This document shows positions 44,208 to 50,322 of a DNA stretch of 64,000 nucleotides, piece by piece (the stretch's first letter is position 1; each line of letters starts with the position of its first letter). Origin of the DNA: an uncultured delta proteobacterium (GTDB lineage: Bacteria; Myxococcota_A; Polyangia; Polyangiales; Polyangiaceae); assembly GCA_963716725.1 (NCBI GenBank), contig CAVQUB010000008.1, forward strand, positions 96,001 to 160,000, read 5' to 3'. The notes beneath the pieces are model-generated. The model saw nothing but the letters and a program-made list of their open reading frames with translations. It had not been told where the DNA came from and did no database searches. The translations under genes and the position numbers were made by a program.

Positions 44208-44921
44208 TCAGACGCGGCTCGCGAGTGTCGCGCGCTCGATCCCCGCCTTGGCTTCGCCTGCTTCTTTCAAGAAGTCGAAGGTGCGCTTGATGATCTCAGA
44301 TGCCCCCTGCTCCTCGTCGCGCAGGTCGTCCATCCGCCGCTTGGTCTCCGCGCCCCGGTGACTCGCCTCCGTGCTGGCGATCTCCGCGCGCTTGCCCGCG
44401 GCGTTGGCGCTAGCGGCCCAGAGTTCCGTGCCGCCTTCAGCGCCCGTACCCGCTCCCCTGAAGGCCATGGCCAGTCCGTTGGCGCGATCCGCGGACGTCT
44501 GAGCGATCTCCTGCGCTCGGTTCGCGGCTTCTTTCGCTGCCTTCTCGGTCGCGTCGTTCGCGGCCTTCCCGGCGGCGTCGGCTCGCGCGGACGCTCCGGC
44601 GCTTCCAATCGTCACGGCTCCCGCCGCGACCTGCAGCCCGCCCGAGGCGATCTTGCCGTAGGCAGCCCGTGTGGCTGCCTCGAGCACATGCTTGGCCTGC
44701 TCGCGCAGCTTCGCGACCTGCTGACCCTCGAAAGACCGCAGTCGGTCCTCTTCCGAGTGGCGCATTTCGCGCGCGTTCGCGCGTTTGTCGTGACCATGCT
44801 TCAGCATCATTGCCGCGACTTGCGCGTTCACGTCTCCGCCGAGTTCGGCGGCCAGAGCCGCCTCCGACTGCCAGATCATCATGCTGCTCGAACCCGAGTT
44901 GTTCACACCGTTGGTCGACAT
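44208..44921 (-). CDS. SctB (YopD/PopD/IpaC-class) minor translocator-like protein
   Basis: Ser/Asn-rich N-terminus, coiled coil, one Gly/Ala hydrophobic segment (IASGGLQVAAGAVTIG), C-terminal amphipathic helix; position in the operon. Confidence 0.6.
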   Translation of the reverse strand: MSTNGVNNSGSSSMMIWQSEAALAAELGGDVNAQVAAMMLKHGHDKRANAREMRHSEEDRLRSFEGQQVAKLREQAKHVLEAATRAAYGKIASGGLQVAAGAVTIGSAGASARADAAGKAANDATEKAAKEAANRAQEIAQTSADRANGLAMAFRGAGTGAEGGTELWAASANAAGKRAEIASTEASHRGAETKRRMDDLRDEEQGASEIIKRTFDFLKEAGEAKAGIERATLASRV

Positions 44922-44949
44922 TTGGCTTGTTCCCTTCGAACTTGGTTGT

Positions 44950-46044
44950 TCATGCGCGCAGGATTAGGGCGTCGAAGGTGGCGGCCTGGATTTGGACGAC
45001 ACCGTTCGAAAGCGTTCGGCTGCGGTTCTGGTTTTCTCCGTGATCTGCCATGTCGACGAGCAGCTCATCGATCATGCGTTGGTAGGCGTGCATTCGGTTC
45101 AAGGTCTCTTGCAGGTTCGCGGCGTGCCGGAGCTCAGCCGCTTCCTGCTTGCCCGCATCGAGCATCTTGATGCCCTCGTTGATGTCGGCAGCGCCCTTCA
45201 AGATGCTTGCGCCCCCGGTGAGATAGCCAATCGCCGAATCTCCGCCAGCCGCTCCCGTAAGGGCCGTGGCCGCCAGGTTCATGCCCAGACGCACCCAGGG
45301 AGCTGCATCCTTCCCGCAGACTTCCTCCGCCAAATTCCATTTGCGATCGGCTTCGCACAGCATGATTGCTGCGACCGCCAGCACCGCGAGGGTGCCGCCG
45401 CTCCCAACCGCCGCCGCGATCGCGCCGGCCTTGGCCAGTAGGCCCACGACTTCCATGAAATCGGGGTTCTCGAGGCAGTTGTCCTTGAAGCTCTCGAAGA
45501 GCTCTTTCGCCTGCGATTTGGCCTCCGCCCAAGCCGCCTCGGCATCGGGGCCCTCGCTCGCGAGCGCGATGGCGAACTTCGCGTTGAACGCGGCGAGATC
45601 GGCCGAGAATGCCATCGCACCCTTGGTGAAGCCTTCGATCTTCTTCTCCAGGGACGGACTCATGGTCACGGTGGCCACCAGCTTGCCGACGACGCTGCCG
45701 ACGACGCTGCCGACCGACCCGGCGATCTTTCCGAGAAGCCCCTTTTTCTTTTTCTTCTTCTTCGCCTGCTGGGCCCGTCGGATCCCATCGGCGATCATCT
45801 TGAGGTACTTGTCGAGCTGTCCCTGCAGCTTCGTTCCAGCGCTGCGGAGCTGGAGCTCCGTGTGGCGGGTCGAGGTCTGGTTGATGCGCTCGAGGATCGC
45901 CATCATCTCCCCCAACGGGTCGGAGGGGTTCAAGGCATCGAGCGTCGGCGGCGGCAGGCCACCCGTTGGCCCCACCCCCGGCGCTGCCGTGGGGAACGGG
46001 GGGGTCGGCGTGGTGGCGCGAACGCCTGAGATGACGAGACTCAT
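44950..46044 (-). CDS. SctE (YopB/PopB/SseC-class) major translocator-like protein
   Basis: Coiled coil then AKKKKKKKGLLGKIAG, hydrophobic AAAVGSGGTLAVLAVAAIML, second hydrophobic stretch, C-terminal coiled coil; ATGA-coupled to the chaperone. Confidence 0.7.
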   Translation of the reverse strand: MSLVISGVRATTPTPPFPTAAPGVGPTGGLPPPTLDALNPSDPLGEMMAILERINQTSTRHTELQLRSAGTKLQGQLDKYLKMIADGIRRAQQAKKKKKKKGLLGKIAGSVGSVVGSVVGKLVATVTMSPSLEKKIEGFTKGAMAFSADLAAFNAKFAIALASEGPDAEAAWAEAKSQAKELFESFKDNCLENPDFMEVVGLLAKAGAIAAAVGSGGTLAVLAVAAIMLCEADRKWNLAEEVCGKDAAPWVRLGMNLAATALTGAAGGDSAIGYLTGGASILKGAADINEGIKMLDAGKQEAAELRHAANLQETLNRMHAYQRMIDELLVDMADHGENQNRSRTLSNGVVQIQAATFDALILRA

Positions 46045-46442
46045 GATGCGTTCCTTTCGGCGGCGATCGCACTCAGCAGGACGGCGTCGTCCGCCAGGGA
46101 CTCGGCTTCGTCCAGCTCTTCGTCGACCTCCACGGAGTGCCCAAGGTGTCGGAGAGCCCGGGCGCGCCCGAGGTGACACCACCCTGATTCCGGCACCAGG
46201 GCACTCCCAATCAGGTAGCGCGCCGCCGCCATCGGCCAGTCTTCGCTACGCTCGCGGCTCACACCGAGCCCGATCCAAGCGCGCTCGTCGCCGGGTGCGA
46301 GCAACGCGAGCAATCCGAAGAAGCGCTCAGCAGATCTGGGGTCGTCGTTCTCGAGGGCTTCGTAGGCGCTTGCGTAGACGCGCTCTGCGAGGATCGACAG
46401 CGAAACCGGCGAACGTAGCGTGATCGGCAGTCCGGCGTGCAT
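46041..46442 (-). CDS. SycD/LcrH-like TPR translocator chaperone
   Basis: VYASAY...AERFFGLLALLAP.DERAWIGLG...A...Y..G..L.P; small and acidic. Confidence 0.75.
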   Translation of the reverse strand: MHAGLPITLRSPVSLSILAERVYASAYEALENDDPRSAERFFGLLALLAPGDERAWIGLGVSRERSEDWPMAAARYLIGSALVPESGWCHLGRARALRHLGHSVEVDEELDEAESLADDAVLLSAIAAERNAS

Positions 46443-46445
46443 GGC

Positions 46446-47045
46446 TCACCTCCCGACGTTTGCGGCGATGGCGTCGGTGCCCTTGTTCAGGGCGGAGATG
46501 AGGTTCGTCGAGAGCTGGATCGCGGTCTGGCGTGCCGACATGGTCGACTGCAAGCCGATCATCTCGAGCTGGGCGCTCGACTCGAGCTGCTTCATCATGT
46601 TGCCGACGTACTCTCTCGAGGCTCCAACCTCGGCGGTGTAGTGGAGGCCGTCGGCGATGAACATGATCTGGCCCTTTTCGCTCAGGTCCTTCTCCAGTTG
46701 CGCGCCCAGCTTCGGGTCGTACGATTTGACCTCCTCAATCGCCGCCTTGATGTTCTTCTCGTAGTCGGCGTCGTCCTTGCCGACCTCGTGTTTCGTTCCC
46801 ACGAGCTTCTTGTTCCCTTTGTCGTCGTCCAACTTGTCCAGCTCGTTCTGGATCTTCATCAGGGCCTTGCGGACACCCTCGATGTTCTTCTGCTTCTGAA
46901 ACACACCGTTGATCTGGTCGTCGAGGCTCGAGAGGCGCGCCGAGAGGTACATCATCATTCCCTCAGCGGTGAGCGCGTTGGGGTTGGCTGACTCGAGCAG
47001 GCTGGGAGCAGTCGTGGTGGGCATGGCTGGGTTGATCTGGGGCAT
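46446..47045 (-). CDS. Bsp22/EspA-like T3SS tip or filament protein
   Basis: C-terminus QLEMIGLQSTMSARQTAIQLSTNLISALNKGTDAIAANVGR resembles the Bsp22-type terminal helix; N-terminal coiled coil; AGGAG Shine-Dalgarno. Confidence 0.6.
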   Translation of the reverse strand: MPQINPAMPTTTAPSLLESANPNALTAEGMMMYLSARLSSLDDQINGVFQKQKNIEGVRKALMKIQNELDKLDDDKGNKKLVGTKHEVGKDDADYEKNIKAAIEEVKSYDPKLGAQLEKDLSEKGQIMFIADGLHYTAEVGASREYVGNMMKQLESSAQLEMIGLQSTMSARQTAIQLSTNLISALNKGTDAIAANVGR

Positions 47046-47073
47046 TGGGTCTTCTCCTATTGGTTGATGTGGT

Positions 47074-47298
47074 TCAGGCGCGGATTGCGCCGAGTGGCTG
47101 GGGGTTGCTCGCGGAGTGCCGAGGGAGGCAGGCTGCTTCGAGGTCGTCGAGGAGACCCGGGTCGGCGCAGACCAGTGTTCCGACGTCGAGCTCCGCGAAG
47201 GCGGCGCGCACTTGGGACCAGGTTTGGTTTTGTTCGGCCAGGGTCGCCGCGCATTCGTCGAGGGTGTTCTGGATCTCGCGAGTGAAGTCGTCCGTCAT
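47074..47298 (-). CDS. Small acidic protein (74 aa), first gene of the translocon-like operon
   Basis: GGAG Shine-Dalgarno, MTDDFTREIQNTLDEC..., helical and acidic. Confidence 0.55.
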   Translation of the reverse strand: MTDDFTREIQNTLDECAATLAEQNQTWSQVRAAFAELDVGTLVCADPGLLDDLEAACLPRHSASNPQPLGAIRA

Positions 47299-47402
47299 TG
47301 GTTTCTCCGTTCGGCACTCCCTCGGCCCGCCCACCGCCCCAGTTGCGCCGTTTTTCTCCGACTCGCCCTCCGCCTCCCTTTCCGGCTATGCTTGCCCTTC
47401 CG

Positions 47403-47888
47403 ATGCGTCGCCCGACCCTCGCCTGGGCCCTCGCCTTTGCCCTCGTCGCTGCTGGTGGCGTTGCCCTGACCGGCAGCGACGTGGAGGCGCAGCCCAAGAA
47501 GGGCCAGAAGGTCAAGAAGGTCTGGAAGAACGGCAAGCTGGTGCCGGCGGAAGAACCGCCGGACGAGGCCGCCGCCAAGGACGAGCCCAAGCTCGGCGCC
47601 AAAGACGCCAAGGAACCCAAGGCCGAGGGGGCCAAGGAGTCCAAGACGGGTGGCGACAAGCCGAAGACCACGACGGGGGCGCCGTCCGTGCTCGAGACCA
47701 AGAGCGAGGGTGACGGCGGCGTGAAGACCTACAAGTTCGGACCGGTCGAGGTCGAGGGACGCCTCAAGTCGCCTCAGGTCGTCTACTTCATGCGCCGTGT
47801 CCGCGCCGAGTTCGCGGCCGGCGCCCTCGGGCACCGCTCGTTCATGCGGGAGCTCAGTGATACCCGTCGAAGCCCTGCCGTGAAGTGA
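47403..47888 (+). CDS. GltF/CglF-like exported protein
   Basis: Signal peptide, Lys/Glu linker, C-terminal YKFG.VEVEG.LKSP..VY..RR...F...RSF..EL. Confidence 0.6.
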   Translation: MRRPTLAWALAFALVAAGGVALTGSDVEAQPKKGQKVKKVWKNGKLVPAEEPPDEAAAKDEPKLGAKDAKEPKAEGAKESKTGGDKPKTTTGAPSVLETKSEGDGGVKTYKFGPVEVEGRLKSPQVVYFMRRVRAEFAAGALGHRSFMRELSDTRRSPAVK

Positions 47889-47897
47889 GAGTTGACG

Positions 47898-49307
47898 ATG
47901 GCCCTACCTGTTGCGCTTCCGATCGTCCTTCGTACCGCCGCCGTCTGGGGCACCACCGTGATCGCCATGCGTCAGCTCGGAGGCGGTGAGTCCTTCGCCT
48001 TCGGTGACTTCAAAGAAGCGTCACTGCCCAAGCCCGACGGCAGCCCGATGCCCGACGTGCCCGTGCGCGCGGTGGGGACGGGCTGGGAACTCGACGCGCG
48101 GGGCGCGACCGGAGGCGTGGTCTTTCTGCGCGGTCGTCAAGAGAACGCCGCCGACCTTGGTCGTGGCGGCGCCCCGGTTCCGATCGTCGCTGGCGACTTC
48201 GGAGTCGTTCAATACGGCCCGACCTTCAGCGTCTTCTTCCAGTTTGCCAACGTACCGCCGCCGATTCGTGATCGGATACGCGCGGAATGGGGGCTGATCT
48301 TCGCCTTCATCTTCTCGCTGGTGGCGATCTGCGGCGGGCTCGCCATGGTCTGGGCCATCACCACACCTCCGGCCATTCCGAAGCCCCTCGAGCTGACCAG
48401 CGCGGCAGAGCTCGCGGTTCAGTTCAACTTGAAAGACGAGCCCGTCGAGCCCGAGAAGACCACCGGCAAAGATCAAGACTCGGACAAGGGTCAAGGCATC
48501 AAGGATCCCGGCGCCAAAGACAAGAAGGACATGGGCGGCGGCAAGAAGATCAAGGGCGCGGAAGGTCAGCTGGGCAAGCAAGGCCTGGCCGACAAGACCG
48601 AGCTGAAGGGCGAGATCCGCAACGGCCTTGGTGGCATGTCCGAGGTGCTCAACAGCGAGGTGGGTGACGAGGTGCGCAAGACCCTCGGCACCATCAGCTC
48701 CGTCGCCGACGCGCTCGGCGGGTTGCGCTCGGACAACATCGTGCTCGGTCGGGGCACGGGCACCGGCTTGAAGGGTTCGGGAGCGGGTGGCGGCGGTGAC
48801 GGCGAAGGCGTGCCCTTCGGTTCGGGAACGCTCGACACGGGTTGGGGTCCTGGCAAGGGTGGTGGCTTCGGATCGGGCAGCGGCGGACCAGGAGGCCGGG
48901 GTCTGGGAGGCTACGGCAAGGGCGGTAAGGGCGGCGGCGACGGCTCGGGTTCTGGCTCGGGCTCGGGACCGGGTGAAAAGAAGGTCGAAGGCAAGGACGT
49001 GCCGAAGCCGGGACAGGGGCTGACGCCGGCTCAGATCTCCCGCGTGGTGATGTCGCGCTACGGCGCGTTCCGCGCCTGTTACGAGTCCGCGGCGTCGTCG
49101 AACCCCAACATGCAAGGCAGCGTCGGCATCTCGTGGAGCATCTCCGCCGGCGGTTCGGTCGCGGGCGCGAGCGTCGGCGGCTCGTCGCTGGGCAATCCCC
49201 GCGTCGAGGGCTGCATCGTGCGTCAGTTCAGCCGGTTGAGCTTCCCCTCCGCGGACAAGCCCACGAACGCTAGCTGGACGTTCAGCTTCAAACCCAGCAA
49301 GAAGTGA
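47898..49307 (+). CDS. GltG-like inner-membrane protein with an AgmX/PglI (TonB-C-like) C-terminal domain
   Basis: FHA-like N-terminus, single TM helix, Gly/Lys-rich linker, GLT..QISRVV...FRACYE...GSV...VEGCI...FP. Confidence 0.75.
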   Translation: MALPVALPIVLRTAAVWGTTVIAMRQLGGGESFAFGDFKEASLPKPDGSPMPDVPVRAVGTGWELDARGATGGVVFLRGRQENAADLGRGGAPVPIVAGDFGVVQYGPTFSVFFQFANVPPPIRDRIRAEWGLIFAFIFSLVAICGGLAMVWAITTPPAIPKPLELTSAAELAVQFNLKDEPVEPEKTTGKDQDSDKGQGIKDPGAKDKKDMGGGKKIKGAEGQLGKQGLADKTELKGEIRNGLGGMSEVLNSEVGDEVRKTLGTISSVADALGGLRSDNIVLGRGTGTGLKGSGAGGGGDGEGVPFGSGTLDTGWGPGKGGGFGSGSGGPGGRGLGGYGKGGKGGGDGSGSGSGSGPGEKKVEGKDVPKPGQGLTPAQISRVVMSRYGAFRACYESAASSNPNMQGSVGISWSISAGGSVAGASVGGSSLGNPRVEGCIVRQFSRLSFPSADKPTNASWTFSFKPSKK

Positions 49308-49395
49308 GACGGTGCATCCGGCGTCGGGCGCGAGTTTGAGCGCTGGCACGCGCGTGGCATACTTCGAGACCAAGCTCTTCATAGGGGTCCGAAAA

Positions 49396-50322
49396 ATGCC
49401 GAAAACATCGCTCCTCGTGTCCCGTGCTCTGGGGTCACTCGCCCCCGGCCGTTGGGGGTCCTTGCCCTCGCGTGTTGCTCTCGCTGGCGTGGTGGCCCTC
49501 TTCGCCGTCGGCTGCGGTGAAGAAGAAGAACGCCGCACGCTCGAGCCCATCCAGCTCGGCATGACCAAGGGCATGGCCGCCATCTACGAGGGCGACGAGA
49601 TGAGCCTCTTCGAGGTGAAGAAGGCCGTCGCCTTCCCGATCCGAGCTCCCTCCGCCGGCGAGCAGGCCGCCCTCAACGGCAGCCCCGTCGCACCGTATCC
49701 GAGCAAGCCCTGGCTGCTGAGCAGCGACCTCAAGGTGCAGGTGAGCTGGACGCTGACGAACCTGGATGAAGAGACCCACAACGTCGAGCTGCTCATCGAT
49801 CCGTGGAACGAGTTCGGGCGCTACTGGCCGGGCATCGCCGTGACCGACGTTGAACGGAACGACCAGATGCCGAACCTCTCCGGGATCGACATCTTGATGG
49901 AGGTGCCGGGAACGAAGAGCGGTCGCCCCTCGCGAAAGCACGGGCTCTTCACCACCGAAGACATGAAAGAGCTCGGGATCGACTTCGCGACTGCGATGAA
50001 CATCCTGCTCAACGCCCCGCCACCGGATCCGACCATCGAGGCGGAAGACAACCCCACGGTGGGGCTGATCAACCACGCCTTCGCCGTCGAGAACCGGTCG
50101 TACAAGGATCTGTACATCAAGCAGTACATCCCCCAGACCATCGCGGGGCTCACCGGTTTCGACATCGGTCTTCGGACCTACGAAGAGGCCAACGTCGCCA
50201 TCGAGATCTTGGTCGAGGTGGTCGACACGGGCAGCGGCAAGGTGGTTCAGCGGGACGAGAAAGACCCAGTGATGCCCGAGCCCACGACCTTCGTCACGGC
50301 GGGCAACGGCCCCGGCTACTGA
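49396..50322 (+). CDS. Lipoprotein of unknown function
   Basis: LFAVGC lipobox; strong codon bias. Confidence 0.7.
   Translation: MPKTSLLVSRALGSLAPGRWGSLPSRVALAGVVALFAVGCGEEEERRTLEPIQLGMTKGMAAIYEGDEMSLFEVKKAVAFPIRAPSAGEQAALNGSPVAPYPSKPWLLSSDLKVQVSWTLTNLDEETHNVELLIDPWNEFGRYWPGIAVTDVERNDQMPNLSGIDILMEVPGTKSGRPSRKHGLFTTEDMKELGIDFATAMNILLNAPPPDPTIEAEDNPTVGLINHAFAVENRSYKDLYIKQYIPQTIAGLTGFDIGLRTYEEANVAIEILVEVVDTGSGKVVQRDEKDPVMPEPTTFVTAGNGPGY

Follow-up and report, generated by a model that had tools for sequence, protein, structure and literature searches.

Five minus-strand genes, g1-g5, lie at positions 44208-47298 of the stretch of DNA that we analysed (the window, 64,000 nt) from an uncultured soil and wastewater member of the Polyangiaceae whose genome is referred to here as G000. 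In our view these genes very probably encode a divergent translocon module, consisting of a small partner, a tip-like protein, a class II chaperone, a major translocator (SctE) and a minor translocator (SctB), which would serve a dispersed non-flagellar type III secretion system (T3SS) of this family. We favour this reading because of the distant homology detected for g3, g4, g5 and g2, the context of related loci and the co-occurrence of the module with an SctV-type export gate.

Chaperone and translocator genes

The open reading frame (ORF) list and a script agree with the preliminary description of this DNA that the five genes are co-oriented and tightly packed; the intergenic gaps from g1 to g5 are 28, 3, -4 and 28 bases. 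A purine-rich stretch precedes every gene, and GC3 lies between 0.77 and 0.89. No sigma-70-like promoter was found at the operon, and terminator-like sites are no more frequent there than in shuffled sequences. A hydropathy scan (19-residue window, threshold 1.2) detected an N-terminal hydrophobic segment in none of the five proteins, in keeping with the earlier statement that they lack Sec signals. Pfam searches with g1-g5 returned nothing relevant for any of the proteins, and in the NCBIfam search g3 alone was matched (LcrH_SycD).

The 133-residue TPR protein encoded by g3 (46041-46442) matches the NCBIfam model TIGR02552 (LcrH_SycD) with an E value of 3.6e-11 and 42.9 bits, and is the top match to this model in its own genome. 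It aligns nearly end to end with the solved structure of SycD (2vgx), residues 9-111 corresponding to 12-113 (E 0.01). An alignment of 11 positional counterparts draws ten of its members from loci of the myxobacterial type and the eleventh from a type III locus of Methylothermaceae. Every member matches TIGR02552; SctY is matched by ten of them, SscB by five, SscA by three and SicA by one. The gene is directly upstream of the translocator genes, with its stop overlapping the g4 start by 4 bases, and this order is kept in 7/7 related loci. A prediction of the complex between g3 and residues 1-75 of g4 scored 0.39, with one control at 0.48, and neither supports nor opposes pairing. Judged by its sequence, g3 is a distant LcrH/SycD-type class II TPR chaperone, for which translocator binding is predicted; the assignment proposed earlier holds as distant homology.

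The product of g4 (44950-46044) is a 364-residue, all-helical protein when translation is counted from the ATG overlapping the stop of g3. Its hydrophobic segments are central (residues 102-132, 143-162 and 195-234 in the hydropathy scan), and both of the motifs quoted in the preliminary description, KKKKKKKGLLGKI and AAAVGSGG, are found in it. No direct match of g4 to PF04888 (SseC) was obtained at E<=1. Among 15 relatives retrieved by a word-indexed search, two (P0013 and P0014, 37-38% identical over almost the full length) carry a precomputed PF04888 SseC assignment. SseC is matched by four of the 14 members of the g4 alignment (A1; best E 4.3e-5), and ApoLp-III by eight of the 14 relatives. 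When the alignment profile was run against 1.84 billion representatives at E<=0.001 it retrieved 128 proteins, 64 of which were scanned; those left out were mostly short fragments and near-duplicates of strong hits. SseC is the sole recurring family among the 64, being matched by 33 at E<=0.01 and by 17 above the gathering score of 30.2 bits. Some of these matches span the whole SseC model; P0130, for instance, scores 49.8 bits over profile positions 3-298. Because these bridging sequences match SseC, and not because of any direct match, g4 reads as belonging to a divergent branch of the SseC/SctE family of major translocators and as a putative pore former; as distant homology, the earlier assignment of this gene as the major translocator is retained. 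We also compared the N-terminal PPTLDALNP of g4 with the chaperone-binding motif PxLxxP; the last position differs and no claim is made for it.

The minor translocator position is taken by g5 (44208-44921), which encodes a protein of 237 residues. The earlier description of this protein as Ala-rich with one hydrophobic segment stands for the composition (23% Ala); the segment is weak, reaching a maximum 19-residue hydropathy of 1.18, just under the threshold, within a weakly hydrophobic Gly/Ala-rich stretch. No direct Pfam match was found for g5, PF05802 (SctB2) included, and its ten relatives, of about 200 residues, are unannotated. In an alignment of 18 members, positional counterparts included, the two top families are SctB2, in four members (best E 8.3e-5), and SseC, in two. 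An hhalign comparison of the g5 family with a 279-residue protein from a Methylothermaceae type III locus (L079, described below), which itself scores for PF05802, gave 96.1% with an E value of 2.9e-9 over 123 columns. These results suggest that g5 is related to the SctB minor translocators and is a candidate SctB, so that the preliminary assignment again survives as distant homology. Residues of about 113-155 of g5 form an Ala/Lys/Glu-rich insertion of ~40 residues, which is missing from the relatives of ~200 residues, including the copy from the same genus.

We note that the C-termini of g1, g4 and g5 have a conserved arginine as the penultimate residue, with a small residue after it (IRA, LRA and SRV). 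This arginine is invariant in alignments A5 and A1 and nearly so in A3, and g2 ends in GR. The arginine at the C-terminus may possibly be a shared export or assembly signal.

The g2 family and its small partner

The 199-residue product of g2 (46446-47045) has a long helix at each end and is very conserved towards the C-terminus, the last ~45 residues being almost invariant in the family. A precomputed match to PF09392, the needle family, is present on 8/45 of the relatives listed. On scanning 35 relatives, nine match PF09392 (T3SS_needle_F) weakly, with a best E value of 0.0019, and nine match FliD_N weakly; many coiled-coil families also match. For g2 as the needle SctF itself, no match to PF09392 over the cut-off was found, and the length of 199 residues compares with 70-90 expected. 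In the AlphaFold2 (AF2) model, which has a pLDDT of 57.8, the terminal helices extend over residues 27-73 and 137-197. A Foldseek search of this model against the PDB gave no match at E<=0.001, and the IpaD rows at E 0.4-1.1 are not meaningful at such a pLDDT. Among 30 matches to g2 in the protein atlas, five fall in clusters in which 12% of members carry EspA and one in a cluster in which 12% carry LcrV, and unnamed clusters are matched as well; we treat this as a lead only.

A metagenome scan for g2 yielded 46 loci. Two of them, L078 and L079, are contigs of Methylothermaceae metagenome-assembled genomes (MAGs) with a compact non-flagellar type III locus that holds a g2-like gene. This locus contains SctQ, SctR, SctS and SctT, a 97-residue gene, a 181-residue relative of g2, a TPR_3 class II chaperone, SseC (96 bits for the protein of L079) and SctB2, and in addition CesT, SctD, YscG, SctJ and a 73-residue needle (66 bits). 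The order of small gene, g2-like gene, TPR_3 chaperone, SseC and SctB2 is the order of g1-g5. An hhalign comparison of the g2 family with the 181-residue protein of L078 gave 97.4% with an E value of 1.1e-11 over 81 columns. A tblastn search of plasmids with g2 itself gave no match, and six rhizobial plasmids carry a homologue of the L078 protein. On one of these, from Sinorhizobium garamanticum (NZ_CP120375), the g2-family homologue is annotated as hypothetical within an annotated T3SS, in the order SycD-family chaperone, sctE, hypothetical gene, g2-like gene and secretin, with the needle, sctD and sctV nearby.

These comparisons indicate, at the level of sequence, that g2 belongs to an unannotated type III family whose genes are found alongside those for the chaperone and translocators in complete loci. 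Because the family stands beside translocon genes in systems that possess a separate needle, its position is the one expected for a tip or filament protein, and we regard g2 as a candidate tip- or filament-like (SctA-like) component. The preliminary description had placed the 199-residue gene in the role of lcrV. Neither the LcrV (PF04792) nor the EspA (PF03433) model matches g2 or any of the 35 relatives, and the identification with LcrV, to which g2 has no similarity, was rejected.

Two side observations concern the g2-bearing loci. Tandem duplicates of the g2-like gene occur on a myxobacterial-type metagenome contig (L042:4423-5697) and in one of the Methylothermaceae T3SS loci (L079:4128-5410). 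Both Methylothermaceae loci also contain a SpoIIE-type phosphatase with Cache/HAMP domains (L078:3316-5738 and L079:283-2301), which in L078 is paired with a HATPase_c_2 kinase-like protein; these phosphatases recall the partner-switching regulators of the Bordetella and Chlamydia type III systems.

The first gene, g1 (47074-47298), encodes a helical protein of 74 residues which is acidic (pI 4.09), as had been described. Searches of Pfam, NCBIfam and the protein atlas gave no match to its family. A counterpart at the g1 position is present in 7/7 related loci, and the 97-residue gene of L078 is found at the same place. No similarity to LcrG could be detected, and both the identity with LcrG and the lcrG role given to this gene earlier were rejected. 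What g1 shares with the small chaperone or partner genes (SseA/LcrG/CesA) is its position only.

Export apparatus, distribution and selection

Consistent with the preliminary description, the Pfam scan found no type III or flagellar family among the 39 other ORFs of the window. Its suggestion that a T3SS is encoded elsewhere in the genome is borne out for SctR, SctS, SctT, SctU, SctN, SctJ and SctQ; SctV, a needle and SctC were not found in the G000 assembly (7.9 Mb, 35 contigs, 84% complete). The core genes were found by tblastn with flagellar proteins followed by Pfam, and they lie at seven loci as singletons or small groups among housekeeping genes. The NCBIfam cut-off is exceeded by SctR, which is accompanied by a FliO-like gene (C13:468862-470174, 239.8 bits), and by SctS (C33:55359-55616, 77.3 bits). 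Matches below the cut-off, each with a non-flagellar model as the best, were obtained for SctU (C6:80126-81148), an SctQ-like gene (C7:135736-136233), SctN (C9:190974-192548) and SctJ (C14:70890-71681). An SctT paralogue is located at C6:29300-29941. The best NCBIfam model is of the Sct (non-flagellar) type for 6/6 core proteins scanned (SctR, SctS, SctU, SctQ, SctN and SctJ), and the two controls, FliI and FliP, are matched best by flagellar models. The Pfam family Yop-YscD_cpl was uninformative as a probe for SctD, giving 62 generic FHA matches in G000. Taken together, the sequence matches indicate that a non-flagellar type III core set is present in G000 outside the window. The five-gene operon stands apart from any apparatus gene, both in G000 and in the carrier loci.

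Two kinds of FHIPEP gene were found in the sample of genomes from the family, a flagellar FlhA type matching the full model (about 820-840 bits) and a split type (about 500 + about 145 bits). The split type scores best as SctV in the same-genus genome G093 and in G073, with 659 and 679 bits, respectively (cut-off 692); in both genomes no recognised core gene lies within about 9 kb of it. The G093 region that holds SctV, in which the N-termini of neighbouring ORFs resemble aroA and cmk by eye, has no counterpart in G000. Because this region is missing from an assembly that is 84% complete, the absence of SctV from G000 is most likely to be an assembly gap.

The sole FHIPEP gene of G000 is a flagellar FlhA, which is part of a complete-looking set of flagellar genes on contig C13. 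The cluster, at about 233-252 kb (loci L001, L010 and L011), comprises flhF, flhA, flhB, fliRQPONM, fliL, flgE, flgD, fliJIHGF, flgC and a sigma-54 activator. Flagella are not usually attributed to myxobacteria; of 41 genomes sampled from this family, 20 contain a flagellar-type FlhA (full-length matches of roughly 720-840 bits). This cluster raises the alternative that the g-proteins are exported by the flagellar apparatus on C13 and not by a non-flagellar system, with which the weak FliD_N match in 9/35 relatives of g2 would also agree. We consider this very unlikely, since the flagellar-type FlhA is missing from 10/15 g2-positive genomes of the family (it is found in only five), since the SctV type alone is present in G073, G200, G122 and G194, four of the eight g4-positive genomes, and since the SctV region missing from G000 is best explained by an assembly gap.

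Synteny across related genomes, proposed earlier as a check, was found: 7/7 carrier loci taken from further members of the family contain the complete set of five genes in an unchanged order, and apparatus genes are never adjacent. The dN/dS ratios between G000 and G093 are 0.235 (g1), 0.131 (g2), 0.148 (g3), 0.122 (g4) and 0.087 (g5), and all five genes evolve under purifying selection. The conserved order and the dN/dS range of 0.09-0.24 rule out a chance arrangement. The g4 profile matches 8/39 other genomes of the family and 0/161 genomes from other families of the order. The g2 profile, which is more conserved, has a wider distribution, matching 21/400 other Myxococcota genomes: 15/29 in its own family, 3/23 in a second family and one in each of another three families, compared with 0/345 in the remaining Myxococcota families sampled. 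Every family with a match belongs to the order of G000. An SctV-type gene is present in 15/15 g2-positive genomes of the family compared with 6/14 g2-negative genomes; these genomes are related, so that the counts are not independent. Apart from G000, SctV is present in all of the carriers examined. The expectation that operon-carrying genomes would possess an export apparatus is thereby upheld as regards the gate.

This DNA (at least half of its words) was detected in 15 runs from six studies of biofilters, wastewater, groundwater and sediment. In one study, two metatranscriptome libraries (X19 and X20) yielded four short contigs that cover positions 46235-47112 and bridge the g3/g2 and g2/g1 junctions; they leave g4, g5 and most of g1 uncovered and are uninformative on expression there. 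These contigs are a weak hint of transcription, as DNA carry-over is possible.

A number of results weigh against the interpretation of the operon as a translocon module. The proteins g2, g4 and g5 themselves reach no Pfam or NCBIfam type III model, and the 42.9 bits of g3 are far below the curated cut-off of TIGR02552 (104.8), a model that also gives sub-threshold matches to TPR proteins in 12/14 control genomes. The hhalign comparison of A1 with the bona fide SseC protein of L079 reached 50.7%, and when the PDB was searched with g4 and with the profiles A1 and A2 (g4 and g2, respectively), coiled-coil noise and no solved T3SS structure came back. The AF2 model of g2 is poor, as noted above, and that of g4, all-helical with a pLDDT of 42.5, is of too low a quality to be used in a fold search. 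No SctV was detected in G000, which possesses the flagellar export apparatus as well. All of the full-length g2 loci among genome contigs (21/21) are from MAGs, labelled as Polyangiaceae, Sorangium sp., Myxococcales, delta-/Deltaproteobacteria and, in 1/21, 'uncultured bacterium'. Finally, in five carriers (G000, G093, G073, G200 and G174), in which other secretins are present, neither a PF09392 needle (E<=0.1) nor an SctC secretin above the cut-off was found, and a complete injectisome is therefore no more than possible.

Some of these results would be expected if the similarity were compositional (coiled coil, Ala/Gly-rich sequence and TPR) and the operon encoded unrelated helical membrane-associated proteins. 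The direct matches are all sub-threshold, ApoLp-III is matched by eight of the 14 relatives of g4 and many coiled-coil families by the relatives of g2, and TIGR02552 responds in most control genomes. However, four independent gene families indicate one and the same system in the order of bona fide loci, no family other than SseC turns up repeatedly in the g4 profile matches, and the operon co-occurs with SctV. We therefore give this explanation almost no weight.

A further alternative is that the module is real but repurposed. Without a needle or secretin its products would stay in the envelope and form no pore in a target cell, acting instead on the cell's own periplasm or outer membrane, or together with a Tad/Kil-like or type II secretion system-type secretin as proposed for the M. 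xanthus T3SS*. The missing needle and SctC in the five carriers, together with the presence of other secretins, are consistent with this, as is a partnership between the Kil pilus and the T3SS* of M. xanthus described in PMC12075869. Purifying selection indicates that the genes are used and does not reveal for what purpose. On the other hand, the g2-like proteins of complete systems occur alongside both a needle and a secretin, and needles, being short and fast-evolving, may have escaped detection. To our knowledge, homologues of SctE and SctB are known only as membrane-inserting translocators. Repurposing thus seems improbable to us, and the most consistent interpretation of the data remains a translocon module of a dispersed non-flagellar T3SS.

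Two other features of the window may be noted. Three genes without a Pfam family diverge from the operon on the plus strand (47298-50322) and encode proteins of 196, 471 (Gly-rich) and 336 residues. ORFs resembling the 471-residue and 196-residue genes, with N-termini similar by eye, adjoin the operon in G093, in G182 and on metagenome contig L051, and a functional link to the operon is possible. A complete rRNA operon occupies 11895-17320 on the plus strand (16S, 11895-13454; two spacer tRNAs; 23S, 14029-17031; 5S, 17205-17320) and is usable for placing the organism, whose assignment to the Polyangiaceae was borne out.

Relation to known systems and implications

The preliminary description compared the operon with the order lcrG-lcrV-lcrH-yopB-yopD, which is that of Yersinia. 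The general order, the chaperone (g3 aligns to SycD) and, as distant homology, both translocators agree with this comparison; the LcrV and LcrG identities do not. The sizes also differ, LcrV having about 326 residues and YopD about 306, compared with 199 for g2 and about 200 for the relatives of g5. The Salmonella pathogenicity island 2 (SPI-2) order sseA-sseB-sscA-sseC-sseD, that is, small chaperone, platform/filament protein, TPR chaperone, major and then minor translocator, includes a platform/filament protein of roughly 196 residues and a minor translocator of roughly 195. By this order and these sizes SPI-2 appears to be the better analogue, and the families matched by relatives carry SPI-2 names (SseC and SctB2 in Pfam, SscA/SscB in NCBIfam). 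In SPI-2, according to PMC3854505, SseA is the chaperone for SseB and SseD, and the TPR protein SscA that for SseC. The likeness has limits: the proteins of the window are sub-threshold, g2 has no EspA/SseB Pfam match, g1 is acidic with no detectable similarity to SseA, and the operon lies outside any apparatus locus in a free-living myxobacterium.

Among filamentous tip proteins, EspA and Bsp22 are near 200 residues in length, have two long terminal helices and are encoded beside translocators. The size, the two terminal helices and the translocator neighbours of g2 resemble these properties, although EspA itself has no Pfam match in g2 or its relatives, and polymerization of g2 is predicted only. 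The proteins of L078, L079 and NZ_CP120375 are homologous to g2 over the C-terminal 80 residues and likewise adjoin genes for a SycD-type chaperone, SctE and SctB. They differ in that their SctF, secretin, SctD and SctV are clustered, and in that the g2-like proteins, of 179-181 residues, have the C-terminal part alone in common with g2.

Within the phylum, the system to be compared is the T3SS* of M. xanthus, of which Thiery et al. (2022) is reportedly the original study. Both possess LcrH-like chaperones, and here too no secretin or canonical needle was found. The T3SS* is described as 'needleless' and secretin-less in PMC10433427 and PMC12075869, and as having no tip or translocon homologues in PMC10433427, PMC12075869 and PMC3459982. 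It is a contiguous cluster without a translocon, in contrast to the dispersed core and translocon module reported here. Abby and Rocha (2012; PMC3459982) restrict the 'Myxo' non-flagellar T3SS to Cystobacterineae and propose that the translocon was acquired later than the secretin; the dispersal of core genes in G000 exceeds the chlamydial arrangement described in the same paper. No description of a Polyangiaceae translocon was found in literature searches, though the supplementary figures of PMC3459982 may list Sorangiineae systems.

If the operon is a translocon module, g3 would bind g4, and perhaps g5, in the cytoplasm and prevent assembly, and g1 would act as the chaperone of g2 as SseA does for SseB. 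The dispersed SctR, SctS, SctT, SctU and SctV, with SctN, SctJ and SctQ, would export g2, g4 and g5, which lack Sec signals. At the distal end g2 would build a tip or short filament, and g4 and g5 would enter the membrane of the target cell and form a pore for the delivery of further substrates.

A bolder possibility, which we hold to be doubtful yet worth stating, is that the Polyangiaceae run a complete contact-dependent injection device that has neither a canonical needle nor an SctC secretin, in which a needle-like g2 is the extracellular conduit and SctE and SctB perforate the membranes of prey or grazers. If true, this would conflict with the idea that the type III systems of myxobacteria are unable to deliver proteins to other cells, and it would place a translocon in a secretin-less lineage, counter to the proposed order of secretin first and translocon later. 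Whether and how these systems reach other cells is questioned in the main evolutionary study (PMC3459982) and in reviews (PMC10433427 and PMC12075869). What is new here is a tip-like protein family that has escaped annotation and is also found in proteobacterial type III loci. The operon supplies specific genes for knock-out and localization, and a conserved translocon module under selection indicates that the parts needed to perforate membranes are available to one order of myxobacteria at the least.

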